Shown in pieces: positions 42,992-59,914 of a stretch of 64,000 nucleotides of DNA (positions are counted from its first letter, which is position 1; every line of letters begins with the position of its first letter). The DNA lies in the NCBI GenBank assembly GCA_031270005.1, contig JAISYJ010000137.1, forward strand, positions 34,087 to 98,086, read 5' to 3'. The position numbers were made by a program, and so were the translations under genes. Source of the stretch: Hungatella sp. Its GTDB lineage: Bacteria; Bacillota; Clostridia; Lachnospirales; Lachnospiraceae. Under the pieces are notes generated by a model that saw only the letters and a program-made list of their open reading frames with translations, ran no database searches and was not told the origin of the DNA.

Positions 42992-43004
42992 GGAGGCTTA
43001 ATGC

Positions 43005-43715
43005 ATGGCAATACTTGAAGTAAACAACTTAGAAGTATATTATGGCGTCATCAAGGCGCTTAAGGATATTTCCTTTGAAGTAAAGGAAGGGGAGATCGTA
43101 GCCTTAATCGGCGCTAACGGCGCAGGAAAGACTACGACTCTTCATACCATAACAGGTCTTATAAAGGCAGCCTCCGGCAGAATACAGTTTGACGGCCACG
43201 ATATTACAAAAATACGGGGCGACAAAATTGTAGGCATGGGAATGGCTCATGTTCCGGAAGGACGGCGTGTTTTTGCCGCCCTGACCGTTTATGAAAATTT
43301 AAAGCTTGGCGCTTACACAAGGCGGGATAAAGACGAGATAGAGGAAACCTTACAAATGATCTACAAGCGTTTCCCCAGACTTTTGGAGAGAAAGAACCAG
43401 CCTGCAGGAACCTTAAGCGGAGGTGAGCAGCAGATGCTGGCCATGGGCCGGGCACTGATGAGCCATCCAAAGGTGATCGTCCTGGATGAGCCGTCAATGG
43501 GGCTTTCTCCGATTTATGTGAATGAGATTTTCGATATTATACAGGAAATCAACAAATCAGGAACCACGGTTTTATTGGTGGAGCAGAACGCCAAAAAGGC
43601 TTTATCCATTGCAAACCGCGCTTATGTTCTGGAAACGGGCGCCATTGTTTTAAGCGGCGATGCCAAAGAATTAATGAACAATGACTCCGTAAAGAAAGCA
43701 TATCTAAGCGAATAA
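43005..43715 (+). CDS. livF: Branched-chain amino acid ABC ATPase
   Basis: GANGAGKTT, VPEGRRVF, LSGGEQQM, DEPSMGL, VEQNA. Confidence 0.95.
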   Translation: MAILEVNNLEVYYGVIKALKDISFEVKEGEIVALIGANGAGKTTTLHTITGLIKAASGRIQFDGHDITKIRGDKIVGMGMAHVPEGRRVFAALTVYENLKLGAYTRRDKDEIEETLQMIYKRFPRLLERKNQPAGTLSGGEQQMLAMGRALMSHPKVIVLDEPSMGLSPIYVNEIFDIIQEINKSGTTVLLVEQNAKKALSIANRAYVLETGAIVLSGDAKELMNNDSVKKAYLSE

Positions 43716-43742
43716 TCATACAGTATTTTTGTGCCGGATTTT

Positions 43743-43800
43743 AAATCCCCTCAATTTCACGTATAAAGCATACGGCAAGTTGAGGGGATTTTTTTCTTTT
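43743..43800. terminator. Bidirectional terminator between convergent livF and the sensor kinase
   Basis: AAATCCCCTCAA...TTGAGGGGATTT with an inner CGTAT/ATACG stem, followed by a T-run. Confidence 0.7.
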
Positions 43801-45563
43801 TATTTATTTTGACTTTCATAATCCGGTATGGTATCCCGTTTATTATTGGGAAAGATGATCGTTACCACTGTCCCTGCGTCAGGTTCACTTACATAAAGCA
43901 ATCCATATTCCTTGCCATACTGCATCTGGATTCTTTCCTTAATATTTTTAATGCCAATCTGATTGAATTTGTTGCTTTTAACCTTAGAGGAATTGATTTC
44001 TTCCAGGACAGAGTCTTCCATGCCGGCTCCGTTGTCTGTGATTTTCACATATAATTTATCCCTTTCCTCATAGCTTTCGATCCGTATTCTATAGTTCTTA
44101 TCCATATCATCAAAACCATGTATAATAGAGTTTTCAATCAGAGGCTGGATGCAAAATGGAATGATAATACATTCCAGCGTGTCTTCGGCAATCTGGTATT
44201 CTACTTCAAAGTAGTTTCCATAACGGTATTTCTGTATGCCGATATAGCGTCGGATGCTTTCGATTTCATCCTTTAGCAGGGCAGAGGTTGTATCCTGCTT
44301 TAAATTGTATTTTAAAAGGTTGGTAAGGTCGCTGGTCATTTCAGCCACATTTGTGATATTCTGCATGGTGGCCAGCCATCGAATGGAATCCAGGGTATTA
44401 TATAAAAAGTGGGGGTTGATCTGGGACTGTAGGATTTTAAATTCAAGGGATGATTTGCGTTTCTGCTCCTGAAGTTCATTAATAAAATAACTGTTCAGCT
44501 TGTCCAGCATCATATTAAAAGTGACCCCCAGATTTCCCACCTCATCCCTTGAATCCATTTGCACACGGAGAGAAAAATCACCGCCCTTTATCTTATTGCA
44601 GGCATCACTGAGGACCTTGATCGGGCGGGTGATCTTGCCTGTGAGCCAAAGGCCGTAAATAAGACTGGTAATACAGGAAATGATTATGATGATAACGGCA
44701 TAATAGGTTATTTTTTTCGTATTGCTGATCAAATGCTGGGTCTGAATGATGCGTATAATACTCCAGTCCGCAATCTTGATGGGATTGGATACAATGGTAC
44801 TGTCCAGATTAAAGACCTTTCCCTCCAGACTATAGCTGGTCGAGGTATCCAACAGCTGAGGATACTGTTTGAGAACCGGTTCGTAGGAAGTGTAATAGGG
44901 GAAATTAAACAGGATCTCGCCGTCGGAATTGATGACAAGCGTCTTTTCATCGGATAAAATGGTGCTGAGCATGAACATTTCCTGTATGTAATTGTAATTT
45001 AAATCCATGATCAGGAGCCCAAGAAATTGTTGTTCCCGGTTCATGAGGGGCCTGATAAAGGAGATGACCTTTTTATCGGCAGAATCCCTGGCAGGATTCT
45101 GAAAATGCGTGGTGAACCATTGTCCTTCCGCGCTGATAACCTGCTTTTTTTCCATATAATCTCCATAATACGCTGACAGCAAAGCTGATTCTGTTCCGGA
45201 GTCTGTACTTAATATGGCTGCATCGGGTCTCATCAGGGAGATATGAGAAATAAAAGGCTGCATCTCCAGAATGTTATTTAAGTTTTCACTTATTTTGCCG
45301 GCTGATTGGGGATTCTGGCCGGATAAGTATTCCTGGATTTCTTCATTTTCATACAGGTAGGTGGAGGTGGCCTGGATCAGATTGATGATTAAATCAAATT
45401 GTGAACGGATTTTGTTGCTTGCAAGCAGGTTGTTCTGTATCTCGTTTTTTTTCAGTTCCCTATAAAAAGTATAATTGACAAAGGTCAAAGATAAAACTAG
45501 GAAAAATGTAGAGAGAACGAATACTCCTATAAAAATTTTTGTTGAAATTTTCTTGATATGCAT
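43800..45563 (-). CDS. YesM/LytS-type sensor histidine kinase
   Basis: The reverse complement gives MHIKKISTKIF... Two TMs, an extracellular Cache-like region, HAMP, LQSQINPHFLYNTL, QPLIENSIIHG, DNGAG, IGIKNI. RBS GGAGG on minus at 45570-74. The track's '+' label is wrong. Confidence 0.92.
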   Translation of the reverse strand: MHIKKISTKIFIGVFVLSTFFLVLSLTFVNYTFYRELKKNEIQNNLLASNKIRSQFDLIINLIQATSTYLYENEEIQEYLSGQNPQSAGKISENLNNILEMQPFISHISLMRPDAAILSTDSGTESALLSAYYGDYMEKKQVISAEGQWFTTHFQNPARDSADKKVISFIRPLMNREQQFLGLLIMDLNYNYIQEMFMLSTILSDEKTLVINSDGEILFNFPYYTSYEPVLKQYPQLLDTSTSYSLEGKVFNLDSTIVSNPIKIADWSIIRIIQTQHLISNTKKITYYAVIIIIISCITSLIYGLWLTGKITRPIKVLSDACNKIKGGDFSLRVQMDSRDEVGNLGVTFNMMLDKLNSYFINELQEQKRKSSLEFKILQSQINPHFLYNTLDSIRWLATMQNITNVAEMTSDLTNLLKYNLKQDTTSALLKDEIESIRRYIGIQKYRYGNYFEVEYQIAEDTLECIIIPFCIQPLIENSIIHGFDDMDKNYRIRIESYEERDKLYVKITDNGAGMEDSVLEEINSSKVKSNKFNQIGIKNIKERIQMQYGKEYGLLYVSEPDAGTVVTIIFPNNKRDTIPDYESQNK

Positions 45564-45582
45564 CACATACCTCCGGATTTTA

Positions 45583-45617
45583 TGGTATACTAGTCACTAA
45601 ATCAACTTATTGTACCA
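45583..45617. promoter_or_regulatory. Face-to-face extended -10 promoters for the regulator and kinase genes
   Basis: Plus: TGG-TATACT (45583-91). Minus: TGG-TACAAT (45609-17). Confidence 0.5.
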
Positions 45618-45651
45618 TGTTTGTTTATCTTTAGGGAAGCGGGAAAATAAT

Positions 45652-47199
45652 ATGAAACGGGTATTGATTGTGGATGATGAATTTTTGGTCCGTATGGGAC
45701 TTAAGATGACCCTGGACTGGAAATCCTACGGGTATGAGATCGCGGCAGAGGCCAGCAGTGCAGAAGAAGCTCTGGAGATCATGGAGCGTGAACCGATTGA
45801 CATTCTGATGACTGATATCAAAATGCAGGGGATGAACGGTCTGGATTTAATTGAGAGGGCAAAAACAAAATATTCGGACATCCAGTCCGTTATATTTACG
45901 AATCATGATGATTTTAATTTTGCACGGCGGGCCATGGAAATGGGGGCGGAAAAGTATATTTTAAAGTCAGAGATTTCACCGGACAGCCTGTTGTCATCTC
46001 TGGTCAATTTATCAGGCGAATCGGAAGCATCATACCGCAAGGGACATTCTGTAAAGAAGATGGAAGAAAAATATTTGGATGAGCAGCTGCTAAAGCTGAA
46101 TCTCTCCGGTGTACAGGAGACTGTTTCTGATTATCCATATTCAGACCGTATGTTTTGTGAAGCATCTTATATGATTATGATAGGCCACTGCAGCATTAAT
46201 TCCCTGCCGGACGGGTCAGTCAGCATGCTGATTGAAACGGTCATGAATCTGGTTTCCAAATTTTTTTGCCACAGCATTGCCAGGTATGTGATTTTAAAGG
46301 ATCTTCTTTGTTTTGGGGTCATATATCATGATGAACGGAATGAATATCCAAAAGAGCTGATGGAGGACAGGGGAGCATCGATTATTAAGAATACGGTTCA
46401 GTATTTTAATGCGGACATCAACCTTGGAATCAGCAGAGCCGGAACAAAAGAACGTTTCCCTCAGATGTTTCAGGAGGCGGAAAGCGCACGGCTGAAGGGC
46501 TTTTTTCATAACGGCAGTGTTTGGACATACGATGAGCCGTTGAATCCGTCCAGAGGAGAGTATATACGGGTCAGTGCCAGGAAAGTAAAAGAGCTGATGG
46601 AAAAGGAGGACAAGGATCCGTTGGCCGAGTATATGAATTCCATTTTCCGTAAGCTGAAAGAAGGCGGGGATTACCGAATGGTAACTGAGGTATTTATTGA
46701 CCTGCTCTCAATCTCCAAATCCCTGATCGAAAATTACGATACCAGGGATATTCCCGGACTGAACCCGGTAAAGTTTGAGTATCACAATCTTTATGCAATC
46801 TCCCATATGAATCATGTTCAGATGTATGTGATGGATGTGTACATGGCAATCTGGGACTTTTTACATAACAGGAAGAGCCCTTACAGCGGGCTGATCAGGG
46901 AGTGCATTGGTTTTATTGAAGAGAACTATTCTCAGAATATTACTTTGGACAATGCGGCGGCAGCGGTGAATATCAGCAGCAGCTACTTGTCGTTTATTTT
47001 TAAGCAGGAAACCGGAATCAATTTCAGCGTGTATCTGACAAATTACCGGATTGAAATGTCAAAAAGGCTGATTCTTAAATCCAATCTGAAAATATATGAA
47101 ATTGCAGAGCAGGTTGGCTTTGGAAGCCCCTATTATTTCAGCAAAGTGTTTAAAGAGATCGTAGGGATGACTTGCAAAGAGTTTAAGAACCGTGTATAG
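45652..47199 (+). CDS. YesN-type response regulator (REC + AraC HTH)
   Basis: LIVDDE, MTDIKM, YILK receiver motifs; C-terminal YLSFIFKQETG...VGFGSPYYFSKVFK. Confidence 0.93.
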   Translation: MKRVLIVDDEFLVRMGLKMTLDWKSYGYEIAAEASSAEEALEIMEREPIDILMTDIKMQGMNGLDLIERAKTKYSDIQSVIFTNHDDFNFARRAMEMGAEKYILKSEISPDSLLSSLVNLSGESEASYRKGHSVKKMEEKYLDEQLLKLNLSGVQETVSDYPYSDRMFCEASYMIMIGHCSINSLPDGSVSMLIETVMNLVSKFFCHSIARYVILKDLLCFGVIYHDERNEYPKELMEDRGASIIKNTVQYFNADINLGISRAGTKERFPQMFQEAESARLKGFFHNGSVWTYDEPLNPSRGEYIRVSARKVKELMEKEDKDPLAEYMNSIFRKLKEGGDYRMVTEVFIDLLSISKSLIENYDTRDIPGLNPVKFEYHNLYAISHMNHVQMYVMDVYMAIWDFLHNRKSPYSGLIRECIGFIEENYSQNITLDNAAAAVNISSSYLSFIFKQETGINFSVYLTNYRIEMSKRLILKSNLKIYEIAEQVGFGSPYYFSKVFKEIVGMTCKEFKNRV

Positions 47200-47202
47200 A
47201 AT

Positions 47203-47239
47203 GGGAAGGACGCCGTTTTAAGAACAGGCGCCCTTTTTT
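47203..47239 (+). terminator. Intrinsic terminator after the response regulator
   Basis: AAGGACGCC...GGCGCCCTT followed by TTTT. Confidence 0.6.
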
Positions 47240-47430
47240 GTGTGTTCCGGTGATAATAACATTTTTTATATTTTCGTAAGATTCTTCTAAAAAAAATCAT
47301 AACCGCCCTCGTCAGAAAGATTGTTAATTAAACCACAAAATAAATTGTCAATTATAGTATAATTATTCATTTCATTAAAAACCATATTCGTGTAATATTT
47401 ACATATAAAAAAAGAGGAGGTTTGACAAAC

Positions 47431-48918
47431 GTGAAAAAAAGCAACATAAAAAGGTGGATATCTTTTGGTATGGCAGGCATTATGACGGCAGGGGCCCTGA
47501 TGGGGTGCAGCAGCTCCGGATCGGGTACGGCTAAGGTATCGGCTACAACTCAGGGGGCGGAAACGGCACAGGAAACTTCAGCAGCAGGATCGGAAGCCCA
47601 GTCCCAGACAGGAGAAGGGGATTTTGACTGGAAGAAGTATGCCGGTACCACGCTGAAGGTAAATATGGTACAGCACAGTGTGGCTGAGGCCATTGTAACC
47701 AAGATTCCTGAATTTGAGGAATTGACCGGTATCAAGGTAGAACACTCTATTACGCCGGAGGCCAATTATTTTGATAAGGTATCCACAGCCCTTGCAAGCA
47801 GGACCGGTGAGCCGGATTTATTCATGTCAGGTGCTTATCAGCTATGGGATTATTCGGCGGCAGGTTATGTATATGATTTGAATGAGTTTTTAAACGCGCC
47901 GGATAAGGTGGCTCCTGGATATGATTTTGCAGATTTATATCCCAGTGCAGTATCCGCTCTTCAATGGGACGGAGTCCCGGGACATGCAGTAGGTTCCGGT
48001 GCCCAGCTGGGTCTTCCGCTGGCCATTGAAATTTACAGCCTTGCATATAACAAGAGAGCCTTTCAGCAGGCGGGAATAGAGGTTCCTAAGACCTATGACG
48101 AGCTGCTGGTTGCCTGTGACAAGCTTCAGGGCTGGAACGGACCGGATTCTTATGCAATGACCGTCCGTGGGGCAAGAGACTGGGGAACCATTCATCCAGG
48201 GTACATGAGCACATTTGCAAATTTTGGAGCCCAGGATTTTGCCATTGAGGATGACCGCCTGGTGTCTAAGGTGAATTCACCGGAGGCAGTGGCAATGACC
48301 GAATTCTGGGTGGACATGATCAAGAGAGGCGGATCGCCGTCATGGTCCAGATATACGTGGTATGAGTGCGGCGCAGACTTAGGAGCAGGCAAGGCTGCTA
48401 TGATGTTTGAAGCGGATAACACAGGGATTCATCAGGACTGGGAAGGGGCTTCTGCAGAGGCCGGCAATCTGGCATGGACAGTGATGCCTTTAGCAAAGGA
48501 AGGAAACACCCCCAATTCAAACTTCTGGACATGGTCCATGGCAATGAATGCAGATACAAAGAATGCGGATGCAGCATGGTATTTTATGATGTATTTTACC
48601 AGCAAGGATTTTGCTCTTTATGCGGTGACTGAGAAAAATGCTCTTGACCCGGCGCGTACTTCCGTAATCAATTCTCCGGAATTCTTAAAAAAGATGGAGA
48701 GTCACGACGGGTATATTGATACGTTTGAAAAGACCATCGGATCAACTACCATCCGTTTTACCCCTCAGCCTTATTTCTTTGAGACGACCACTTTATGGGC
48801 AACCACACTGCAGGAACTGGTAGCGGGGAATTATGCCACTGTTCAGGAAGGCATGGACAGTTTAAAGGAGAAGCAGGATAAGGTAGTAGAAGACATTGTC
48901 ATCTCTGACTATGAATAA
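47431..48918 (+). CDS. CUT1 sugar/polyol ABC transporter substrate-binding lipoprotein
   Basis: Lipobox LMGC with Ser/Thr/Ala linker; FDWKKYAGTTL, PEFEELTGIKV, AAWYFMMY; GTG start after GAGGAGG. Confidence 0.9.
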   Translation: MKKSNIKRWISFGMAGIMTAGALMGCSSSGSGTAKVSATTQGAETAQETSAAGSEAQSQTGEGDFDWKKYAGTTLKVNMVQHSVAEAIVTKIPEFEELTGIKVEHSITPEANYFDKVSTALASRTGEPDLFMSGAYQLWDYSAAGYVYDLNEFLNAPDKVAPGYDFADLYPSAVSALQWDGVPGHAVGSGAQLGLPLAIEIYSLAYNKRAFQQAGIEVPKTYDELLVACDKLQGWNGPDSYAMTVRGARDWGTIHPGYMSTFANFGAQDFAIEDDRLVSKVNSPEAVAMTEFWVDMIKRGGSPSWSRYTWYECGADLGAGKAAMMFEADNTGIHQDWEGASAEAGNLAWTVMPLAKEGNTPNSNFWTWSMAMNADTKNADAAWYFMMYFTSKDFALYAVTEKNALDPARTSVINSPEFLKKMESHDGYIDTFEKTIGSTTIRFTPQPYFFETTTLWATTLQELVAGNYATVQEGMDSLKEKQDKVVEDIVISDYE

Positions 48919-48950
48919 GCTGAGTGAATTAATATAAAGGAGGGGCAGGC

Positions 48951-49868
48951 TTGGCACAAAAAACACCGAAGGAAATCAATTATAATGAAATTCCGGCCCA
49001 TATACGCAGACGGCCGTACTATATCATCGCTCCCGGACTCCTGATCCTGATCGGGATTATGATTCCATTTGCCATAGCGATATTTTTATCGCTGACAAAT
49101 TACTCATTTAAAAATCCAAATTTTAAGTTCATCTTTTTACGCAACTGGATTCGGGTGTATCAGGACCCTGATTTTTACCATTCCCTTTGGGTTACCATCA
49201 AGTATGGATTCTTTGCAACGGGAACTCAGATGATCCTGGGGTCCGTGATCGCCATCCTGCTTCGGAAGGATACCGGATTTACAAGGGTTTTAAAGGTGGT
49301 ATTCACCTTTCCTCTGATGGTGGCTCCGGCCATTGCAGTGCTCATCTGGCAGCTGATGACTTCCAATTCGGTGGGCGTGCTGGAAAAGTTTTTAAACCTG
49401 TTTGGTGTGTATGGATTTAAGTGGGCAGCATCCCAGGAAACGGCCATGTTCACTGCGGTGCTGATAGATACCTGGGTAAATACCCCCTTTGTGCTGTTAC
49501 TGGTTTTGGCAGGGCTTCAGTCTCTGCCAAAATCCCCCTTTGAAGCAGCCGAAGTGGATGGGGCCAGTTCGTGGTTCATCTTTAAAACACTGACCTTTCC
49601 CATGCTTAAGCCGTTTATGTACATCGCTCTTTTATTCCGATTGATGGCGGCACTGCAGGAATTCGGCATTATATTTGCCCTGACTAAGGGCGGGCCGGGA
49701 AATACGCTTATGAACATTTCACTGACAGGCTATATTACAGGATTTCAATTCCAGAAGTTAGGGTATGCACTTCCCTATTTGCTGACCCTTTGGGTGATTG
49801 TCAATGTTACAGCCAGTTTTCTTGTAAACAGGCAGCGTAAAATGGCAAAGCAGGCCCAGGGATATTGA
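48951..49868 (+). CDS. Carbohydrate ABC permease
   Basis: Six TMs; EAA loop (LQSLPKSPFEAAEVDGAS). Confidence 0.92.
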   Translation: MAQKTPKEINYNEIPAHIRRRPYYIIAPGLLILIGIMIPFAIAIFLSLTNYSFKNPNFKFIFLRNWIRVYQDPDFYHSLWVTIKYGFFATGTQMILGSVIAILLRKDTGFTRVLKVVFTFPLMVAPAIAVLIWQLMTSNSVGVLEKFLNLFGVYGFKWAASQETAMFTAVLIDTWVNTPFVLLLVLAGLQSLPKSPFEAAEVDGASSWFIFKTLTFPMLKPFMYIALLFRLMAALQEFGIIFALTKGGPGNTLMNISLTGYITGFQFQKLGYALPYLLTLWVIVNVTASFLVNRQRKMAKQAQGY

Positions 49869-49886
49869 TTCAGAAGGAGGACAGTT

Positions 49887-50741
49887 ATGGAGCATTCCAT
49901 TGAAACCGCGAAACAAAGAAACAGGCTGAAAGAAGGGGCCAGGGAAACCGGACGCAATCTGGGACTTGCCCTGTACGCCCTGTATGCCCTGTTCCCTCTT
50001 ATCTGGATGCTGATCTGTACGTTTAAGAGCGATACGGAAATGTATAATACGGTCTTTATCTTCCGGCCGACACTTGCCAATTACCAGGCGGTTCTGCTGG
50101 GAACGGATTATGTCCGGGCTTTTTTTCAAAATATTATTGTTTCCGGAGGGGCAGTGCTGCTTACAGTAGTGGCAGGTGTGCCTGCGGCATATGCACTGGC
50201 CCGGTATGACTTCCGGAAAAAGGATGATATTGCATTTCAGATTTTATCGTTTAAGTTTGCGCCGGAGATCATGGTGATTCTGCCGATTTTCCTGATCTTT
50301 CAAAAGATCGGGCTGTATGATACATATTTTGGTTTGATTTGGGTTTACCAGCTGATCACCATGCCCCTTCTCATCTGGGTGGTACGGGGGTATTTTGAGG
50401 ATATCAGCGTGGAGGTAGAGCAGGCCGCTTCCTTAGACGGGTACTGCTGGTATGAAGTGTTTTTAAAGACTCTTCTGCCTCTGATCAAACCGGGACTGGT
50501 TGCCTCAGGGCTTCTGGCATTTATCTTTGCATGGAACAGTTTTACATTTCCGCTGATTCTCAGCGGGTTTAAGATCCAAACCCTTACCATTACATCCCTT
50601 CGGTATATTTCATCTGAAACCGTACATTACGGGCAGGTGGCAGTGGCGGCCACCGTAGCCGTTCTGCCGGAGATCATCGCCTGTCTGTTCATTCAGAAGC
50701 ATTTGGTAAGAGGACTCAGCTTCGGCGCTGTTAAAGGATAA
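49887..50741 (+). CDS. Carbohydrate ABC permease
   Basis: PAAYALAR, EVEQAASLDG, FAWNSF, FIQKHLVRGLSFGAVKG. Confidence 0.92.
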   Translation: MEHSIETAKQRNRLKEGARETGRNLGLALYALYALFPLIWMLICTFKSDTEMYNTVFIFRPTLANYQAVLLGTDYVRAFFQNIIVSGGAVLLTVVAGVPAAYALARYDFRKKDDIAFQILSFKFAPEIMVILPIFLIFQKIGLYDTYFGLIWVYQLITMPLLIWVVRGYFEDISVEVEQAASLDGYCWYEVFLKTLLPLIKPGLVASGLLAFIFAWNSFTFPLILSGFKIQTLTITSLRYISSETVHYGQVAVAATVAVLPEIIACLFIQKHLVRGLSFGAVKG

Positions 50742-50754
50742 GGAGGACAGGGGA

Positions 50755-51906
50755 TTGGCAGAAATAGAACTGATTAATGTTACAAAAAAATACGGATCTA
50801 AGACAGCGGTGGACGGGGTCAGCCTGACTGTGAAAGACAATGAATTCTTTGTACTGTTTGGTCCGGCCGGAGCAGGTAAAACTTCCTTGCTCAAGGTGAT
50901 CGCAGGAATTGAATTCCCCCAGGAGGGGCTGGTGAAGATAGATGGAAAGATCGTAAACCACGTGGAACCCATGAACCGGAACGTTTCCATGGTATTTGAG
51001 AATTATGCCCTTTATCCCCATTTAAGTGTTTATGATAATATCGCTTCCCCCATGAGAAGCAGGCTTTATAAGCAAAGCGAGGATTTTATCCGATCTGAGG
51101 TGGACCGGGTCACTGTGATGATGAGGATCAACCATTTACTGGAGCGAAAGCCCAGCCAGCTTTCCAATGGGCAGCGGCAGCGTGTGGCCATCGGACGGGG
51201 ACTGGTGAGAAAGCCCAATGTATTCCTTATGGATGAACCCTTAGCCCATTTGGATGCAAAGCTCCGTCATTTTATGCGGAGGGAGTTAAAAGAAATGCAA
51301 AGCAATTTTAATACCACAACCATCTATGTGACCCACGATTACATGGAAGCCATGTCCTTGGCAGACCGGATCGCCGTGGTTCATGAGGGGAGGATCGTGC
51401 AGATAGGAAGTGCCGTTGAAATGTATTATCTTCCCCGCAACGAGTTTGTCGCAAGACTGTTCGGTGAACCTGAGATCAACATTTTTTCAGGCGCTTTTAA
51501 GCTCAGTGGAAATCAGGGGCTGATTGCTGCCTTTGAACAAGACTCTGTCCTGGAGGTGACACCAGATGTGATTGACCGTATAGCCTCCCTGGATGGGGAG
51601 CAGATTGATGTGGGTATCCGGGGCAGTGACATCGCCTTTCGCTTTGAAAAACAGGACAGTACCTGGATCAGAGCCTCGGTTTATGCCAATGAACCCATTG
51701 GAAATAAGGTCATCATGACGGTTCTTGCCGGTGAAAATAAATTGGAGGTGGTTGCCCCCAATGATACCAGGGCTTCTATTGACCAGGAGGTTTATTTAAA
51801 ATTCAATATGGCAAATGCTCTCTATTTCGACCATTCCTCAAAGGAATTGATTACAAGAGCCGGAAGACAGAAATATGAAGCAAAGAGTCTAAACGGAGGT
51901 CAATGA
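50755..51906 (+). CDS. MalK-type ABC ATPase (1)
   Basis: GPAGAGKT, VFENYALYPH, LSNGQRQR, MDEPLAHLDAKLR, YVTHD; C-terminal TOBE-like region. Confidence 0.92.
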   Translation: MAEIELINVTKKYGSKTAVDGVSLTVKDNEFFVLFGPAGAGKTSLLKVIAGIEFPQEGLVKIDGKIVNHVEPMNRNVSMVFENYALYPHLSVYDNIASPMRSRLYKQSEDFIRSEVDRVTVMMRINHLLERKPSQLSNGQRQRVAIGRGLVRKPNVFLMDEPLAHLDAKLRHFMRRELKEMQSNFNTTTIYVTHDYMEAMSLADRIAVVHEGRIVQIGSAVEMYYLPRNEFVARLFGEPEINIFSGAFKLSGNQGLIAAFEQDSVLEVTPDVIDRIASLDGEQIDVGIRGSDIAFRFEKQDSTWIRASVYANEPIGNKVIMTVLAGENKLEVVAPNDTRASIDQEVYLKFNMANALYFDHSSKELITRAGRQKYEAKSLNGGQ

Positions 51907-51907
51907 T

Positions 51908-53020
51908 ATGGCAGAGCTGGTACTTAAAAATATCTATAAGCAGTATGACAATAAAGAGAAAAAAAAAGCGGCAAACGGGTATGCTGTCAATGATCTTTCG
52001 TTTCGATGTGAGGACGGGGAATTCATTGGGATCCTGGGACCTTCGGGATGCGGAAAATCCACTACCTTAAGGATGCTGGCAGGTCTGGAGGTGATCACAT
52101 CCGGAGATGTATACATCGGGAAAACACGGATCAATCATCTGCTTCCTAAGGACCGTGGAATCGGTCTGGCTTTTGAGGATTATGCCCTGTATCCGCCTTT
52201 GACCGTTTATGAGAATCTTGCTTTTAATATGCGGGCAAAGAAAAAGACGGAAGAGGAAATCAGAAAAGAGATCGGCAGGGTCGCCCCTCTGCTTAAGGTA
52301 GAAGATTTATTGCAGATGAAACCTGCTGCTTTGTCAGGCGGACAAAAGCAACGGGTCAATATTGCCAGGGCTATTATCCGGCGGCCGGGGCTCTTGCTTC
52401 TTGATGAGCCTTTAAGCCATCTGGATGGGAAAATGAGGCAGATGCTCAGGCAGGAAATAAAGAGGATGCATCATGAGATCAAATGCACGACCATTATCGT
52501 GACCCATGATCAGATCGAAGCCATGTCCATGGCAGATAAGATTGTTATTATGAAGGAGGGGAAACTCCAGCAAATGGGGACTCCCCTGGAAGTATACGAT
52601 GATCCGGCCAATGAATTTGTAGCTGGATTTATCGGAGAGCCGCCCATGAATTTAATTCCGTCGGTTATCAAAAAGGAAGGGGAACGGTATAATTTTGCAT
52701 TTGAAAACAGCGGATTAAAGGTTCTGGTGCCTGACCGTTATAAGCCTGTGGTCAGGGAAGGTCTGAAGGTGACTCTGGGTGTCCGTCCTGTGGATGTTCT
52801 GATTTCCCATGATCCGGCCACCAGCACACCGGTACCTGTTGCCGTATATGAAAATATGGGTGATGAGCGAAGGATCAGCCTTCGGGTGGGTGACAACCTG
52901 TTAAGCATTACCACAACAGATGATGTGTATTACGAGAAAGGCGATGAGGTCTATTTAAAATTCAATTCAGAAAAGACCCATCTGTTTGATGTAGACACCG
53001 GGGACCGAATCCGGGTATAA
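51908..53020 (+). CDS. MalK-type ABC ATPase (2)
   Basis: GPSGCGKST, LSGGQKQR, LDEPLSHLD, VTHDQIEA, GFIGEPPMN. Confidence 0.93.
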   Translation: MAELVLKNIYKQYDNKEKKKAANGYAVNDLSFRCEDGEFIGILGPSGCGKSTTLRMLAGLEVITSGDVYIGKTRINHLLPKDRGIGLAFEDYALYPPLTVYENLAFNMRAKKKTEEEIRKEIGRVAPLLKVEDLLQMKPAALSGGQKQRVNIARAIIRRPGLLLLDEPLSHLDGKMRQMLRQEIKRMHHEIKCTTIIVTHDQIEAMSMADKIVIMKEGKLQQMGTPLEVYDDPANEFVAGFIGEPPMNLIPSVIKKEGERYNFAFENSGLKVLVPDRYKPVVREGLKVTLGVRPVDVLISHDPATSTPVPVAVYENMGDERRISLRVGDNLLSITTTDDVYYEKGDEVYLKFNSEKTHLFDVDTGDRIRV

Positions 53021-53042
53021 AAAAGAATGGAGGATTTTTAAG

Positions 53043-54116
53043 ATGAGTATTCCGAAAACAATGAAGGCACTTGTTGCGTATTCCAAGGATGACTACCGTT
53101 TTGAGCCGGCTTATCCAACACCGGAATGCGGTCCGGATGACATTGTCATCAAGACCGAAGGCTGCGGAATCTGTGCAGGAGATTTAAAATGCAGCCACGG
53201 AGCAGCCATGTTCTGGGGAGATGAGGTCCAGCCTTCATGGGTAAAACCGCCCTTTATTCCAGGACACGAGTTTTTAGGCGAAATTGTTGAACTGGGAGAG
53301 AATGTGAAAGAATTTCAGATCGGTGACCGTGTGACTGCCGACCAGATCAAGCCCTGCGGGGAATGTAAGTTTTGTAAATCCGGCCGCTACTGGATGTGCC
53401 AGCCTCATGATATTTTCGGTTTCCAGCACACCAATAACGGCGGCATGGCAGAGTATGTGAGATATCCAAAAGGTTCTGTAATACATAAAGTCCCAAAAGA
53501 TATGCCCTTTGAGGATGCGCTTTTAATTGAGCCTTATGCCTGCTCAAAGCATTGTGTAGACCGGGGAGAAATCGGCTGTGAGGATGTTGTGGTGATCTCA
53601 GGGGCCGGAACTCTGGGACTTGGGATGGTCACTTATGCCCGCATGAAAAACCCATCCAAACTGATCGTCCTTGATATGATGGATGACAGGCTGCAGAAGG
53701 CGAAAGAATTTGGTGCCGATCTGGTGCTGAATCCTGGGAAAACGGATGCAGTGAAAACGGTCATGGATTTAACAGAAGGTTATGGATGCGATATCTATAT
53801 TGAGGCCACCGGCCATCCTTCCAGTGTGGTGCAGGGACTTTCCATGATCAGAAAGCTGGGACGTTTCGTAGAATTCAGCGTATTTTCAGAACCTGCCACT
53901 GTGGACTGGTCCATCATCGGTGACCGGAAGGAATTGGATATTGCAGGTGCCCACTTAAGTCCTTATTGCTATCCCTTTGTCATTGAAAACATAACAAACG
54001 GTAATTTAAAGACAGACGGTGTTATCAGAAATACATTCCCCATTGAAGAATGGGAAAAGGCGTTTGAATATGCCGGAGGCAAGTACGGCGACTTTAAGGT
54101 AGCTATTAAATTTTAA
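53043..54116 (+). CDS. Zn-dependent polyol dehydrogenase, EltD (erythritol/L-threitol dehydrogenase)-like
   Basis: GICAGDLKC-HGA-MFWGD, IPGHEF, C-x2-C-x2-C-x7-C Zn motif, MCQPHD-FGF, RKLGRFVEF-VF, VDWSII-D-KELD--GAHL match M. smegmatis EltD as I recall it. Confidence 0.8.
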   Translation: MSIPKTMKALVAYSKDDYRFEPAYPTPECGPDDIVIKTEGCGICAGDLKCSHGAAMFWGDEVQPSWVKPPFIPGHEFLGEIVELGENVKEFQIGDRVTADQIKPCGECKFCKSGRYWMCQPHDIFGFQHTNNGGMAEYVRYPKGSVIHKVPKDMPFEDALLIEPYACSKHCVDRGEIGCEDVVVISGAGTLGLGMVTYARMKNPSKLIVLDMMDDRLQKAKEFGADLVLNPGKTDAVKTVMDLTEGYGCDIYIEATGHPSSVVQGLSMIRKLGRFVEFSVFSEPATVDWSIIGDRKELDIAGAHLSPYCYPFVIENITNGNLKTDGVIRNTFPIEEWEKAFEYAGGKYGDFKVAIKF

Positions 54117-54153
54117 CCAGGCAGCAAAGCGGATCGTGATTATCCGCTTGACT
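54111..54153 (+). repeat. Family-2 hairpin repeat (short, degenerate)
   Basis: TTTTAACCAGGCAGCAAAGCGGATCGTGATTATCCGCTTGACT. Confidence 0.75.
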
Positions 54154-54170
54154 AAGGTAAGGGAAGGATT

Positions 54171-55025
54171 ATGACTAGTCATGGAGTTTATCGGTTAGGC
54201 TTGTATGAAAAAAGCATGCCGGGAGATTTATCCTTTGAGGAAAAGCTGAAAGCAGCAAAAGATACAGGGTATGACTTTATTGAAATGAGCATCGATGAAA
54301 CCGAAGAAAAAATCAATCGGCTTGATTTTGGTGATGCAAAGATTCTGATGCTTCAATCCCTTTCGCTGGATACTGGCATCCGGTTTGAATCCATCTGCTT
54401 TAGTGCCCAGCGAAAGTTCCCGCTGGGCAGCCTTCTTGAGGGGGCGGCAGAAGCAGCTGTGGAGCTTTTTAAAAAGTGTGTGGATTTTGCTGTAAAAATG
54501 GGAATACGCATCATACAGGCACAGGGGTATGATTGTTATTATGGGGAGACATCCTCAGCAGAAACCAGGGGGAAATTTCTGAGTAATTTAATGCTGTGCA
54601 TGGAATATGCCTCTGCCCATGGAGTCACCGTTGGATTTGAAACCATGGAAAACGAGTTTATGAATACGGTTGAAAAAGCCATGTATTACGTGGATCAGAC
54701 AAAAATGCCCTATCTTTCCGTATACCCTGATGTGGGAAATATATGGAATGGGACCGATGATATATACCGGGATTTAGAATGCGGGCGCAGCCATATCTGT
54801 TCGGTTCATCTAAAGGAAACTCTGCCAGGAAAGTTCCGGGAGATTCCCTATGGGGAGGGTCAGGTGGATTTTGAAAAAGTCATTCGAAAGACCAGACAGT
54901 TAGGGATCCACCGGTACGTAGCGGAATTCTGGTATACAGGTGAAGGGGATTACCATGATACCCTTATAAAAAACAACCGGTTTTTAAAAGGGCATCTGGA
55001 TGCTGCTTACGCAGGGGAGGTGTGA
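54171..55025 (+). CDS. L-xylulose-5-phosphate/L-ribulose-5-phosphate 3-epimerase (UlaE/SgbU-like)
   Basis: LGLYEKSMP, GYDFIEMSIDET, FSAQRKFPLGS, GFETME, YPDVGN, HLKET, EFW. Confidence 0.88.
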   Translation: MTSHGVYRLGLYEKSMPGDLSFEEKLKAAKDTGYDFIEMSIDETEEKINRLDFGDAKILMLQSLSLDTGIRFESICFSAQRKFPLGSLLEGAAEAAVELFKKCVDFAVKMGIRIIQAQGYDCYYGETSSAETRGKFLSNLMLCMEYASAHGVTVGFETMENEFMNTVEKAMYYVDQTKMPYLSVYPDVGNIWNGTDDIYRDLECGRSHICSVHLKETLPGKFREIPYGEGQVDFEKVIRKTRQLGIHRYVAEFWYTGEGDYHDTLIKNNRFLKGHLDAAYAGEV

Positions 55026-55026
55026 G

Positions 55027-56535
55027 ATGAAACAATATGTAATGGGTCTGGATAACGGAGGTACTATGACAAAGGCCGCTTTATTTGACCTTAAGGGGAA
55101 TCAGATCAGTGCTTTTTCGGCCAGCACGCCGATAGAAACTCCTAAATCCGGTTATACGGAGCGGGATATGGATCTATTGTGGGAGAATAACCTTCTCTGC
55201 ATGAAGGGGGCAGTGGAACATGCCGGTATTAATCCTGCTGATATCATTGGAGTATCCGTATGCGGGCACGGCAAAGGCCTTTACGCCTGGGGCAGGGATG
55301 GACGCCCGGCCTACAGGGGAATCGTATCCACTGATACAAGGGCCTGGGAATATACGGAAAAATGGTATAAGAACGGAGTTTTTGACCATATATATGAGCG
55401 GATATGCCAGCAGCTGATGCCTTGTCAGCAGGCAGCCCTGCTTGCATGGATGAAGGATCATAACAGAGACGTTTATGACAAGATCCAGTGGGTGTTTTCG
55501 GTGAAAGACTATATCCGTTTCCGGCTCACAGGGGAAGCTTATTGTGAAGCCACCGATATATCCGGCTCCGGTCTTCTCAATGTGCGGGATAAGGTATTTG
55601 ACAGAGAACTATTGGAAAGCTATGGGATCGGAGAAGTGTATGAAAAGCTGGCACCCCTTAAATATTCCTATGATCTGTGCGGGAAGCTGACTTGTGAAGC
55701 TGCCGAAAGAACCGGCCTTTTGGAAGGAACACCTGTAGCCGGCGGGATGTTTGATATTGATGCCTGTGCCATTGCAATGGATATTACAAAGCCGGAACGG
55801 CTTTGCACCATCGCAGGTACCTGGAGCATCAATGAATTTATTGCGGAAGAACCGGTGCTCCATGGGCCGGTTGCCATGAATTCCCTTTTTGCCATGCCAG
55901 GGTATTATCTCCTGGAAGAATGCAGTGCCACCTCGGCGGGAAACTTAGAATGGTGTATGGATAACCTGATTGATTTCAGCGGGAGGCAGGATGGGGAAAG
56001 CAAATATGATTTTTTAAGCCGCCAGGTTCAGTCGGTTCTGCCGGAAGAGTGCGACGTATATTTCCTGCCCTTCCTATACAGCTCCAATGCCCATCCCTTG
56101 GGCAAGGGAAGTCTGGTGGGGCTGACTACATATCATAAAAATGCCCATATCATCAGGGCTGTTTATGAAGGGGTCGTCTATTCCCATAAAACCCACATCG
56201 ATAATCTTCTTAAAGTAAGGGAAAAACCGGAAGCCATCCGAATGGCAGGCGGAGTCGTGAATTCCCCGGTATGGGTCCAGATGTTTGCGGATGTTCTGGG
56301 GATCCCCATTGAAACCATCAAAGCAAAGGAACTGGGAGCATTGGGCTGCGCCATGGCTGCCACTGTGGCTGCCGGAAGCTTCGCAGATTATGAAGAGGCG
56401 GCCCGGAATATGGTTCATGTGGAGAAAAAGGTAATGCCGGATATGGAAAAACATAAAATTTATATGAAGAAATTTAAAAAGTATACGGCGGTCAAAGAAG
56501 CTCTTGACATGGCCTGGCCGTTGTTTACCGTGTAA
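55027..56535 (+). CDS. FGGY kinase, L-xylulose/3-keto-L-gulonate kinase (LyxK-like)
   Basis: GLDNGGT-TKA, GYTERDM, GHGKG, STDTRA, KDYIRFRLTG, GGMFD, AGTWSIN, EGVVYSH. Confidence 0.82.
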   Translation: MKQYVMGLDNGGTMTKAALFDLKGNQISAFSASTPIETPKSGYTERDMDLLWENNLLCMKGAVEHAGINPADIIGVSVCGHGKGLYAWGRDGRPAYRGIVSTDTRAWEYTEKWYKNGVFDHIYERICQQLMPCQQAALLAWMKDHNRDVYDKIQWVFSVKDYIRFRLTGEAYCEATDISGSGLLNVRDKVFDRELLESYGIGEVYEKLAPLKYSYDLCGKLTCEAAERTGLLEGTPVAGGMFDIDACAIAMDITKPERLCTIAGTWSINEFIAEEPVLHGPVAMNSLFAMPGYYLLEECSATSAGNLEWCMDNLIDFSGRQDGESKYDFLSRQVQSVLPEECDVYFLPFLYSSNAHPLGKGSLVGLTTYHKNAHIIRAVYEGVVYSHKTHIDNLLKVREKPEAIRMAGGVVNSPVWVQMFADVLGIPIETIKAKELGALGCAMAATVAAGSFADYEEAARNMVHVEKKVMPDMEKHKIYMKKFKKYTAVKEALDMAWPLFTV

Positions 56536-56550
56536 GGGGGAGGACGGCTT

Positions 56551-58188
56551 ATGGATTTGAATATTTCTGCAATCAGAGAAGCCATTGAAAACGGAAGAGC
56601 TTCTCTGGGAATCGAACTTGGTTCTACCAGAATCAAGGCTGTGCTCATCGGGGAAAATCATATTCCTCTTGCTTGCGGAGGCTATGACTGGGAAAACCGG
56701 TTTGAGGACCGGGTCTGGACGTACAGCCTGGAGGAAGTGAAAAGGGGCCTTACCGGCTGCTACAGGAATCTGGCAGAGGATGTAAAGAAAACATACGGTG
56801 TGGAGCTGAAGGTATTAGGTTCTCTTGGAATCAGCGGCATGATGCATGGGTATCTGGTGTTTGACAAGTATGACAGGCAGCTTGCTCCCTTCCGGACCTG
56901 GCGCAATACCATAACCGGAGAGGCCTCTGCCAGGCTGACGGAAATTTTTGCTTATCCCATTCCCCAGAGATGGAGCATTGCCCATTTATACCAGTCCATG
57001 CTGAACCAGGAGGACCATGTGAAGGATATGGGTTTTATGACGACTTTATCCGGTTATGTTCACTGGCTTCTTACGGGGCAAAAAGTATTGGGAGTAGGAG
57101 ATGCCTCCGGGATGTTTCCCATAGATATCCGAACCAGGGATTTTAACAGCCGGATGCTGGATCAGTTTGACCGGTTGGCCGCAGACACGGGATATTCCTG
57201 GAAGCTTCATGATATACTTCCAAAGGTATTATCAGCAGGGGAAAATGCCGGTGTCCTGACTCCGGAAGGCGCCGGACTTCTGGATCCTTCCGGTCAGCTA
57301 AAGTACGGCGTTCCCCTTTGCCCTCCGGAAGGTGATGCGGGAACAGGAATGGCGGCTACCAACAGTGTAAGACCAAGGACCGGCAATGTGTCCGCAGGCA
57401 CCAGTGTATTTTCCATGATCGTACTGGAAAAGGAGCTGGCCCATGTTTATGAGGAAATTGACTTAGTCACCACCCCTGCCGGTGATCTGGTGGCAATGGT
57501 ACATTGCAACAACTGTACTTCAGATTTAAACGCATGGGTATCTTTATTTGGAGAATTTCTGGATGAAATGGGTTATAAGGCGGAGGCCGGACAGGTGTTT
57601 TCCGTGTTATATAATCTGGCATTGACAGGAGATAAGGACTGCGGAGGGCTTTTATCCTACGGTTATTTAGCGGGAGAGCATATCACCGGATTTGACGAAG
57701 GAAGGTCCTTGTTTGTACGCATGCCTGACAGCCGGTTTAACCTGGCTAATTTTATCAGGGTCCACCTGTTTACCTCTTTAGGTGCATTAAAAACAGGGAT
57801 GGATATCCTCTTTAAGAAGGAGGGGGTAAAACTGGACCTGCTGTTTGGTCACGGAGGCCTGTTTAAGACAAAAGGCGTGGGGCAAAGCGTAATGGCGGCG
57901 GCGATGAATGTGCCGGTTTCCGTAATGGACACAGCCGGGGAAGGGGGAGCCTGGGGGATTGCACTGCTGGCTTCCTATATGATTCACAGGGAAAAAGGAG
58001 AAACATTGGAGCATTATCTTGAAAACCGGGTATTTTCCGGTGAGAGCGGAAACCAGGTAATGCCGGATCCTGAGGATACAGCCGGATTTGAGATATTTAT
58101 GGAGCGTTATACCGGAGGATTGGCCATAGAACGGGCAGCTGTAGAAGTGATGAAGCCTTATTCCAATGAGTTTAACCGAATCAGGTAA
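56551..58188 (+). CDS. FGGY kinase, clostridial AraK-type L-ribulokinase-like
   Basis: [72 protein letters not shown]. Confidence 0.78.
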
Positions 58189-58251
58189 GTTCTATTTTAA
58201 ATGCAAAAAGCATGAAAAGAGAACCATAAAAATCAGCACAACAAGATTATA

Positions 58252-58300
58252 AAGGATGGCAAAAGAAGTGTAAAAACGGCTTTGCCATCCTTACTTTTTT
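58252..58300 (+). terminator. Terminator closing the polyol operon
   Basis: AAGGATGGCAAA...TTTGCCATCCTT followed by ACTTTTTT. Confidence 0.7.
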
Positions 58301-58384
58301 CTATTATTGCCGGTTTAAACAGAATCCCAGGAGGGAGCAGGAATCATATGGATCTATCCAGGAAGCTGGGTGAAAAAGAAAAGG

Positions 58385-58412
58385 GAATAATCCTTTCTCC
58401 CATGCATATAGT
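58385..58412 (+). promoter_or_regulatory. Putative sigmaE (mother-cell) promoter of spoIVA
   Basis: GAATAA, 14 bp, CATATAGT; spoIVA is an established sigmaE target. Confidence 0.55.
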
Positions 58413-58438
58413 ATAACAGCACAGAAGGGGGAATCTTT

Positions 58439-59914
58439 ATGGACAATTATAACGTATACAATGATATCAAAGCCCGAACCAACGGAGAAATCTACATTGG
58501 AGTTGTGGGGCCGGTAAGAACAGGAAAATCGACTTTTATCAAGCGTTTTATGGAATTAATGGTTCTGCCGGGCATGGAGGATGAACACCAGAAAACTCAG
58601 ACAAGGGACGAACTGCCCCAGAGCGCGGCAGGAAAAACCATCATGACCACGGAACCAAAATTCATCCCAAAGGAAGCTGCCGTTATCCGCCTGGGAGATG
58701 AGATCGAAACAAAAGTCCGCTTAATCGACTGCGTCGGCTTTATGGTAGAGGGTGCTGCCGGCCACATTGAAAACGACGAAGAGCGGCTTGTAAAAACTCC
58801 CTGGTTTGATTATGAGATTCCTTTTACAAAAGCAGCGGAAATCGGAACCAGAAAGGTCATCAATGATCATTCCACCATTGGTGTGGTCATCACTACAGAC
58901 GGTTCCATCGGGGAATTGAAGCGTCCCAACTACATAGCAGCGGAAGAACGCACCGTTCAGGAACTGAAAAATCTGGGAAAACCGTTTATCATCCTGCTTA
59001 ATTCTTCCAAGCCATATTCTGATGAAACCACAGCCCTCTCAAAGGATATCAGTCAGAAATATGGGGTGACGGTCATGCCCATTAACTGTGAACAGCTGAA
59101 AAAAGATGACGTGAACAACATCCTGGAACGGGTGTTAAAGGAATTTCCCGTGACAGAGATGGATTTCTTCATTCCAAAATGGCTTGAAATCCTCCCTGCA
59201 ACCCATTGGCTGAAAGCCCAGGTCATCCAGGCCGCAAAGGATATGGTTAAAAAAGTCTCCCATATGAAGGACGTATCCTCCGAGTTATTTGACGGATCAG
59301 CGGACAGTGTCCGGTCCATCAAGGTTCAGAACATGAATATGGCGGATGGAAGCGTTTCCGTTGCAATGGATGTGGATGACAGTTATTATTATCAGATTTT
59401 AAGCGATTACGTAGGGCTTCCCATTGAGGGAGAATATCAGTTAATGCAGACCTTAAGCGAGCTTGCAAAAATGAAGGCAGAATATGAAAAGGTCAATCAG
59501 GCCATGAGTCAGGTACGCTTTAAAGGGTATGGAATTGTGACTCCGGAACGGTCCGAGATCATCCTGGATGAACCGGAAGTGATCAAGCACGGAAATAAAT
59601 ACGGCGTAAAAATGCGTGCAGAGGCTCCTTCCATCAATCTCATCAAGGCTCATATCCAGACGGAGATCGCTCCTATTGTGGGAAGCGAACAGCAGGCAGA
59701 GGACTTGATCGCCTATATCAAAGAAAATGCAAGAGAAAGCGAAGAAGGAATATGGAATACTAATATTTTTGGAAAATCCATTGAACAGATCGTGGAAGAC
59801 GGCATTCAGCAAAAGGTATCCCAGCTTACGGAAGACTGTCAAATAAAACTTCAGGACACCCTCCAAAAAATAATTAATGATAGTAATGGCGGTATGATTT
59901 GCATTATTATCTAA
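58439..59914 (+). CDS. spoIVA: Stage IV sporulation protein A
   Basis: GEIYIGVVGPVRTGKSTFIKRF, DELPQSAAGKTIMTTEPKF, HSTIGVVITTDGS, GGMICIII. Confidence 0.98.
   Translation: MDNYNVYNDIKARTNGEIYIGVVGPVRTGKSTFIKRFMELMVLPGMEDEHQKTQTRDELPQSAAGKTIMTTEPKFIPKEAAVIRLGDEIETKVRLIDCVGFMVEGAAGHIENDEERLVKTPWFDYEIPFTKAAEIGTRKVINDHSTIGVVITTDGSIGELKRPNYIAAEERTVQELKNLGKPFIILLNSSKPYSDETTALSKDISQKYGVTVMPINCEQLKKDDVNNILERVLKEFPVTEMDFFIPKWLEILPATHWLKAQVIQAAKDMVKKVSHMKDVSSELFDGSADSVRSIKVQNMNMADGSVSVAMDVDDSYYYQILSDYVGLPIEGEYQLMQTLSELAKMKAEYEKVNQAMSQVRFKGYGIVTPERSEIILDEPEVIKHGNKYGVKMRAEAPSINLIKAHIQTEIAPIVGSEQQAEDLIAYIKENARESEEGIWNTNIFGKSIEQIVEDGIQQKVSQLTEDCQIKLQDTLQKIINDSNGGMICIII

Follow-up and report, generated by a model that had tools for sequence, protein, structure and literature searches.

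What does an operon do that sets one polyol dehydrogenase beside two sugar kinases and a sugar-phosphate 3-epimerase? The question is raised by a locus on a 64,000-nucleotide stretch of DNA from Hungatella sp. (contig JAISYJ010000137.1, positions 34,087 to 98,086; referred to here as the window), for which an earlier note, made from the sequence alone, had proposed a branched pathway of L-arabitol catabolism. We find nine genes in one tightly packed unit (window positions 47431-58188, + strand), and we read them as a substrate-induced operon that would import and catabolise a pentitol, most probably L-arabitol. The substrate, the stereospecificity and the induction are what we infer here, and we hold this reading with roughly even confidence. 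The narrower proposal, that a single EltD-family dehydrogenase oxidises L-arabitol at both of its S-configured ends and that the two resulting ketoses converge at L-ribulose-5-phosphate (L-ribulose-5-P), is a tentative one, held at less than even confidence. What the analysis described below establishes is the content and order of the genes, the families and catalytic residues of their products, and the conservation of synteny.

Enzymes, importer and layout of the operon

Four open reading frames (ORFs) lie on the same strand within 53043-58188, just where the earlier note had placed them, and its calls of an EltD-like dehydrogenase, a UlaE/SgbU-like epimerase, a LyxK-like kinase and an AraK-like kinase all held up. 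The first ORF (53043-54116, +) encodes a zinc-dependent medium-chain dehydrogenase/reductase (MDR) of 357 amino acids with the Pfam domains ADH_N and ADH_zinc_N, which belongs to the EltD family of polyol dehydrogenases. Both zinc sites and the Rossmann motif of the MDR fold can be read from its sequence: C44, H75, E76 and E163 are the catalytic zinc ligands, C105, C108, C111 and C119 the structural ones, and a GxGxxG motif (G187xG189xxG192) is followed by D211, suggesting that the enzyme is probably NAD-linked. It is 49% identical to Mycolicibacterium smegmatis EltD in a comparison confined to the N-terminal 130 residues (PMC10733421, supplement). Among the NCBIfam profiles no EltD model matched, and no curated hidden Markov model (HMM) names the enzyme. 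NCBI calls some members of its 90% cluster erythritol/L-threitol dehydrogenase, with inconsistent naming within the cluster, and the structure of a fungal L-arabinitol 4-dehydrogenase (PDB 3M6I) matches it at 2.1e-26.

The second ORF (54171-55025, +) encodes a UlaE/SgbU-type L-xylulose-5-phosphate (L-xylulose-5-P)/L-ribulose-5-P 3-epimerase of 284 amino acids, with an AP_endonuc_2 domain and a xylose-isomerase-like triosephosphate isomerase (TIM) barrel. It scores 297 bits on the NCBIfam subfamily model NF009689 (L-ribulose-5-P 3-epimerase; cut-off 200) and 251 bits on the stricter TIGR00542 equivalog, below the cut-off of 272, and it matches E. coli UlaE (PDB 3CQH) at 2.5e-62. Consistent with the family assignment, E157, D187, H213 and E252 align to the four metal ligands (Glu, Asp, His, Glu) of UlaE in 3CQH. 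The epimerase shares 36% identity with E. coli SgbU and 51% with the second UlaE of the same genome.

The two remaining ORFs encode FGGY kinases of different types. The first of these (55027-56535, +) opens at 55000, and its likely start is the ATG at 55027, which is preceded by GGGGAGG at a distance of 7 nt and by the epimerase stop at 1 nt, and which agrees with the N-terminus of E. coli LyxK. In reciprocal searches the product and LyxK of E. coli find each other as best match (326 bits, 35% identity, against 169 bits for LsrK and 106 for XylB), pointing to a LyxK-like enzyme and a probable L-xylulose 5-kinase; NCBIfam has no curated LyxK HMM. The second kinase (56551-58188, +) is divergent, with 545 amino acids and 22% identity to LyxK; among the NCBIfam profiles it matches XylB weakly and AraB not at all. 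We regard it as AraK-type, and as a probable L-ribulokinase, because it is 57% identical over its full length (526 aligned residues) to the kinase encoded 3' of araA and araD in the same genome (contig C6, 26863-28452), and it is this one araA-araD-kinase operon that backs the assignment. AraK is the non-orthologous clostridial ribulokinase described as Clostridium acetobutylicum CAC1344 (PMC3507653). Of 200 Lachnospiraceae genera sampled, 120 have a member of this family.

All four enzymes score below the equivalog cut-offs of curated models, as would be expected if the family names mislead on substrate size and the true substrate is a hexitol, a deoxy-polyol or a compound derived from a sugar acid. 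E. coli LyxK also accepts 3-keto-L-gulonate, and the best solved relative of the operon's binding protein binds sorbitol. However, neither the operon nor its conserved neighbourhoods in other genomes contain a decarboxylase, an aldolase or a hexose-phosphate enzyme, and the recurrent partner is AraD, the L-ribulose-5-P 4-epimerase, all of which makes such a substrate very improbable. A reading in terms of ascorbate or 3-keto-L-gulonate was rejected. No UlaD or SgbH decarboxylase is found in the operon or its conserved relatives, so the operon does not encode the ketogulonate route. The same genome has, on contig C83, a separate ascorbate-type phosphotransferase system (PTS) locus that includes a UlaE and an AraD.

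Upstream of the enzymes, the same unit encodes an ATP-binding cassette (ABC) importer of the CUT1 class, with the family-1 binding protein, the two MalF/MalG-type permeases and the MalK-type ATPase of that class all present. The solute-binding protein is a lipoprotein (47431-48918, +; Pfam SBP_bac_1/8, lipobox LMGC) whose ORF opens at a TTG at 47422, the GTG at 47431, 10 nt after GGAGG, being the likelier start. Its best solved relatives are the sorbitol-binding 4RYA (2.4e-18) and 5IAI (1e-16), both distant matches only. The permeases both carry BPD_transp_1 and are UgpA/MalF-like (48951-49868, +) and MalG/GlcU-like (49887-50741, +). Two ATPases of the UgpC/MalK type follow (50755-51906, + and 51908-53020, +), identified by domain and family profile matches, the second with an OB_MalK/TOBE tail. 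The two share 38% identity, and as a tandem pair they are kept in about 20 related loci, which suggests a heterodimeric ATPase, unusual for this importer class.

A two-component system adjoins the importer. The sensor histidine kinase (43800-45566, -; Pfam dCache_1, HAMP, His_kinase and HATPase_c) is the probable sensor of the operon's substrate, and the response regulator (45610-47199, +; Pfam Response_reg with HTH_AraC/HTH_18) is of the YesN type with an AraC-type DNA-binding domain. The pair accompanies the transporter and dehydrogenase in loci of other genomes as well (L017, L018, L022, L046 and L079). The two genes are back to back here, with their starts 43 bp apart (45567-45609), and co-directional in related loci.

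Hairpins resembling terminators flank the nine genes on both sides. Upstream, a hairpin with a T-run read from the sequence lies 3' of the response-regulator gene (47206-47239, +). Downstream, a perfect 12-bp hairpin followed by the T-run ACTTTTTTCT lies 3' of the last kinase gene (58252-58302, +), where the hairpin scan also gave an overlapping hairpin. With gaps of 1-54 nt between the genes, this compact layout and the flanking terminators lead us to expect that all nine genes are co-transcribed. The spoIVA gene downstream forms a separate unit and the remaining downstream genes are unrelated. A small hairpin without a T-run, GCGGATCGTGATTATCCGC, lies in the 54117-54170 gap between the dehydrogenase and epimerase genes and may be a processing or stability element. 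An Rfam search of 43000-59000 for a riboswitch or other leader RNA gave no match.

Stereochemistry of the proposed route

As far as the M. smegmatis pathway is outlined in PMC10733421, EltD converts L-threitol to L-erythrulose, and erythritol enters by way of D-erythrulose-4-phosphate (D-erythrulose-4-P). Because of these tetritol products, we take EltD to oxidise the S-configured carbon next to a CH2OH group and to tolerate either configuration at the next carbon. In L-arabitol, which is 2S,4S, oxidation at C2 yields L-ribulose and oxidation at C4 yields L-xylulose. On re-derivation, the stereochemistry of the earlier note, in which the product depends on the end that is oxidised, proved correct. 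By our own derivation, an S-specific enzyme would convert xylitol to D-xylulose and ribitol to D-ribulose and would leave D-arabitol untouched. Under this rule, therefore, L-arabitol would be the sole pentitol to need a LyxK-type kinase together with a UlaE-type epimerase, and the sole pentitol to give both L-xylulose and L-ribulose.

In the route that we propose, the two-component system, with its Cache-domain kinase and AraC-type regulator, would turn on the CUT1 importer, and the NAD-dependent EltD-family zinc enzyme would oxidise the S-configured carbon beside a terminal CH2OH of the imported polyol. Oxidation at C4 would give L-xylulose, to be phosphorylated by the LyxK-like kinase and converted by the UlaE/SgbU-type epimerase to L-ribulose-5-P. 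Oxidation at C2 would give L-ribulose, to be phosphorylated directly by the AraK-type kinase. L-ribulose-5-P from both branches would then be converted to D-xylulose-5-phosphate (D-xylulose-5-P) by AraD. Two bona fide AraD genes lie elsewhere in the genome, one at C6 in the order araA-araD-kinase and one in the ascorbate-type PTS locus at C83, and the pathway is therefore completable in trans. With the window included, the genome has AraK-type kinases in three copies and AraD and UlaE-type epimerases in two copies each (C6:24611-28452, C83:36640-39341 and C14:30874-32472 in addition to the window). The AraK-type gene at C14 is solitary and lies between genes for a D-Ala-D-Ala carboxypeptidase and a major facilitator superfamily (MFS) transporter.

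Both kinases, the epimerase and AraD would be accounted for equally well by a dehydrogenase of the opposite specificity. An R-specific enzyme acting on the common pentitols would oxidise both xylitol and ribitol at C4, giving L-xylulose from the former and L-ribulose from the latter, and the kinases would again converge on L-ribulose-5-P. Xylitol and ribitol are far commoner in nature than L-arabitol, and bacterial xylitol 4-dehydrogenases are paired with LyxK in Pantoea. The known xylitol 4-dehydrogenases, however, are short-chain dehydrogenases/reductases and not zinc-dependent MDRs, and both EltD and the sorbitol-dehydrogenase branch of the MDRs oxidise an S carbon. The neighbourhoods in other genomes point the same way, since orthologues of 74% identity beside DhaK/DhaL and RpiB, as in the EltD pathway, and the XylB-like contexts both fit S-specific chemistry. 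We thus consider R-specific oxidation quite unlikely.

Partners of the dehydrogenase in other genomes

A scan of species-representative genomes yielded 80 loci with dehydrogenases 72-82% identical, in which ORFs were called and clustered and recurrent clusters annotated; counts are given over 81 loci including the window. In ten of the loci a 410-aa antisense ORF had replaced the dehydrogenase call, and this proved to be an artefact of the ORF filter. The loci belong to Clostridia, Paenibacillus, termite-gut Treponema and other lineages. The names of the protein clusters assign the source organism to Lacrimispora, and L. saccharolytica WM1 carries the same enzyme genes (ADL04658-ADL04661). The gene set is conserved across phyla together with the transporter, far beyond chance. 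The same importer family adjoins the dehydrogenase in 21 of the 81 loci, and in 20 loci the binding proteins beside the orthologues are 44-68% identical to that of the window. A LyxK-like kinase is the neighbour in 15 loci, an AraK-type kinase in 13, a UlaE-like epimerase in 11 and a true AraD (60-73% identical to AraD/SgbE) in seven. In a sample of 200 further Lachnospiraceae genera, a dehydrogenase of at least 72% identity was found in 13; a LyxK-like kinase is adjacent in 7 of these 13, and in at least two (G097 and G134) an AraK-type kinase also lies within a few kb.

The arrangement of these partners bears directly on the two-kinase pentulose logic put forward earlier. In Treponema primitia (L060), the importer, dehydrogenase, LyxK-like, AraD and UlaE-like genes form one locus with overlapping genes, and the LyxK-like/AraD/UlaE-like triad recurs in Treponema sp. 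(L037) and Aequitasia (L022). The other branch appears in Paenibacillus rhizophilus (L004), where the dehydrogenase is accompanied by HAD, MFS, AraK-type kinase and AraD genes, and in L080, where AraD directly follows the dehydrogenase and an AraK-type kinase is present, both loci being without LyxK and UlaE genes. A Clostridium metagenome-assembled genome (L002) combines the dehydrogenase with UlaE-like, LyxK-like, AraD and AraK-type genes, that is, both branches in one locus. Each branch thus exists alone elsewhere with AraD, and both also occur together, in keeping with the proposed logic. The partnership of UlaE with the 4-epimerase is likewise visible, with AraD adjacent in L002, L022, L037 and L060. 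A tetrulose would offer a 4-epimerase nothing to act on, and the recurrent triad therefore points to a pentulose.

Most loci of the LyxK/UlaE type lack the AraK-type kinase, and the L-xylulose branch would therefore be the core of the system, to which some lineages, this one among them, have added the second branch. That the AraK-type kinase is optional also suits an operon for several polyols in which nothing branches. Here the dehydrogenase would recognise the erythro CH2OH-CHOH-CHOH end, taking L-arabitol to L-xylulose only and ribitol to D-ribulose, which would pass through the AraK-type kinase into the pentose phosphate pathway. The two kinases would then answer to two substrates, the LyxK-like enzyme and the epimerase to L-xylulose and the AraK-type enzyme to D-ribulose. 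A precedent is the single Sinorhizobium meliloti locus that, with one ABC transporter, serves erythritol, ribitol and L-arabitol (PMC3599248). Two unrelated ribulokinase types adjoin the dehydrogenase, the AraK-type in 13 loci and a canonical AraB-type enzyme (TIGR01234, 710 bits) in five, the latter with HAD and glycerophosphodiester phosphodiesterase (GDPD) genes, a setting that would fit ribitol drawn from ribitol-phosphate polymers. In these five loci (L006, L007, L009, L012 and L013) the dehydrogenase gene is directly beside the AraB-type gene, with the HAD phosphatase and GDPD genes nearby, and they may encode a route for ribitol or arabitol freed from phosphodiester polymers such as teichoic acids. 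On the other hand, L004 and L080 have AraD right beside the dehydrogenase and the AraK-type kinase with no LyxK or UlaE, which argues for L-ribulose-5-P rather than D-ribulose-5-phosphate as the intermediate. The AraK-type family is also that of the araA-araD operons, and EltD takes both erythro and threo tetritols. On balance we think this multi-polyol operon unlikely, if still worth weighing against the pentitol route from L-arabitol.

The earlier note had taken the absence of a DerI/LerI-type isomerase as an argument against erythritol and threitol. This argument is weak, as an RpiB is encoded elsewhere in the genome. A tetritol operon of new design would oxidise erythritol and L-threitol to D- and L-erythrulose, the FGGY kinases would form the 4-phosphates, the UlaE-like enzyme would convert L- to D-erythrulose-4-P, and the housekeeping RpiB would lead on to erythrose-4-phosphate. 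The chemistry of UlaE, 3-epimerisation of a 2-keto, omega-phosphate sugar, would allow this, and the NCBI name erythritol/L-threitol dehydrogenase within the enzyme's 90% cluster is in its favour. DhaK/DhaL adjoin the dehydrogenase in four loci and RpiB in three. The operon itself contains no Dak-type kinase, TIM-type isomerase or RpiB-type isomerase; such EltD-type clustering is present for the orthologues in L047, L051, L025 and L048, and in L047 and L051 the same transporter and dehydrogenase stand with DhaK, DhaL and RpiB. Against a tetritol, the overlapping LyxK-like/AraD/UlaE-like triads of L037 and L060 would go unexplained, and the window's kinases are closest to L-xylulose and L-ribulose kinases. 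In L025 (9968-11065 and 17747-18838) and L048, moreover, a single importer has a dehydrogenase paralogue on either side, the 78% copy adjoining a LyxK-like kinase and the 57% copy adjoining DhaK/DhaL. This suggests that the LyxK and Dak modules do different jobs, and the arrangement has the look of a locus for pentitols and tetritols combined. The DhaK/DhaL-side paralogue is no closer to EltD (49%) and is the sole clearly divergent one in a tree of the dehydrogenases. We judge a tetritol operon improbable.

One further neighbourhood fits no known polyol pathway. In it, FAD oxidoreductases (PF12831) adjoin the dehydrogenase in 16 of the 81 loci, in one to five copies (L012, L013, L016, L020, L021, L023, L027, L034, L040, L041, L045, L049, L055, L063, L072 and L076), often with hydantoinase-like genes and genes of unknown function. 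In four loci, in a different setting, the neighbour is an XylB-like kinase.

Several of these observations weigh against L-arabitol as the substrate and against the branched route. L-arabitol is rare in nature, and AraD, needed to finish the pathway, is not encoded in the operon. The identity to EltD is just 49% where the two are comparable, over 130 residues, and we know of no experiment on any protein of this dehydrogenase clade. With an RpiB in the genome, the absence of DerI/LerI says little against the tetritols. The assemblies of L047 and L051 resemble the M. smegmatis tetritol pathway, and their dehydrogenases, at 74% identity to the window enzyme, are as close to it as those from pentulose contexts. 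The orthologues and the same transporter are also found with XylB-like kinases, FAD oxidoreductases and AraB-type kinases, and the second kinase of the proposed branch point is missing from most related loci. Furthermore, a tree of 73 dehydrogenase orthologues labelled by neighbourhood did not split into pentitol and tetritol clades; the contexts interleave, largely by taxonomy, and the tree therefore carries no substrate signal. Since the cassette is shared with other modules and the tree is unsplit, the dehydrogenase may have a broad range, and several polyols may be served by the operon. Most economically, the clade can be viewed as consisting of probably broad, S-specific polyol enzymes, with the downstream module setting which polyol is productively used; for the module in the window, that polyol would most probably be L-arabitol.

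Comparison with known systems

The earlier note knew of no described pathway with this gene combination in Lachnospiraceae, and a literature search found no paper on it; a search on polyol phenotypes of Lacrimispora or on an operon of this kind brought up nothing relevant. To our knowledge, the genes of the enterobacterial L-arabitol route have never been tied to an EltD-type enzyme, nor has a second entry of L-arabitol by way of L-ribulose been described. Beyond Sinorhizobium and the old Klebsiella enzymology, hardly any genes have been assigned to the catabolism of L-arabitol in bacteria. A 2015 study stated that a bacterial L-arabitol pathway had been described only in S. meliloti, and its genome analysis failed to explain the L-arabitol trait in Propionibacterium (PMC4437456). 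If the branched reading is true, an L-arabitol pathway would for the first time be defined genetically in Firmicutes and Spirochaetes, and it would be one form of a modular kit that plugs a conserved importer and dehydrogenase cassette into alternative pentulose or tetrulose modules in different anaerobes. The L-arabitol reading would name a substrate for a dehydrogenase clade that is widespread and highly conserved yet unstudied, and whose carriers include Paenibacillus and termite and rumen anaerobes. It would also predict what LyxK-like and AraK-type kinases do outside Proteobacteria, and the function of a CUT1 importer with two different ATPases. The modular pattern would also help to predict the use of erythritol, xylitol, ribitol and arabitol by gut and rumen bacteria. 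The prediction is clearly a testable functional one with an unsurprising mechanism. It is not new biochemistry, as each step has a known precedent; what is new is the arrangement of known enzyme types.

The closest precedent in intermediates comes from the biochemistry of Aerobacter (Klebsiella) aerogenes mutants in the 1960s, in which L-arabitol was converted to L-xylulose, L-xylulose-5-P, L-ribulose-5-P and D-xylulose-5-P. These are the same intermediates as in the proposed L-xylulose branch. Fungal L-arabinitol 4-dehydrogenase (LAD) is likewise a zinc-dependent MDR, but fungi reduce L-xylulose and do not phosphorylate it.

In E. coli, the lower part of the yiaK-S pathway (LyxK, SgbU and SgbE, acting on L-xylulose and L-lyxose) shares the kinase (35% identity) and the 3-epimerase (36%) with the window operon. 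It also shares a 4-epimerase of the AraD/SgbE type, provided in trans here and within the operon in L002, L022, L037 and L060. The two differ in their supply: yiaK-S is fed by uptake of 2,3-diketo-L-gulonate or by RhaA, whereas the window operon would be fed by a polyol dehydrogenase and an ABC importer. In addition, the window operon lacks the SgbH decarboxylase, has an extra AraK-type kinase and leaves the 4-epimerase outside.

The upper part of the route resembles the erythritol/L-threitol pathway of M. smegmatis (EltD, LerK, LerI, DerK and DerI; Huang et al. 2015, as outlined in PMC10733421), with the same dehydrogenase family and oxidation before phosphorylation. From that outline, the DhaK/DhaL and RpiB of orthologous cassettes in other genomes resemble LerK and DerI. 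The window operon differs in the pentulose enzymes downstream, the CUT1 importer and the two-component control. The second kinase probably has its counterpart in the clostridial arabinose pathway of CAC1344, likened to the FGGY branch after araA-araD through gene position and annotation, and AraD completes both routes. Unlike in that pathway, the AraK-type kinase of the window stands in a polyol operon without araA.

Finally, the erythritol/adonitol/L-arabitol locus of S. meliloti (mptABCDE, lalA, rbtABC and eryA-D; PMC3599248), compared here by its published description, has one ABC importer for related tetritols and pentitols. This alphaproteobacterial locus uses other enzyme families and another order of steps, with the kinase acting first on erythritol. 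The modularity that S. meliloti displays within one locus appears, in the system described here, across genomes.

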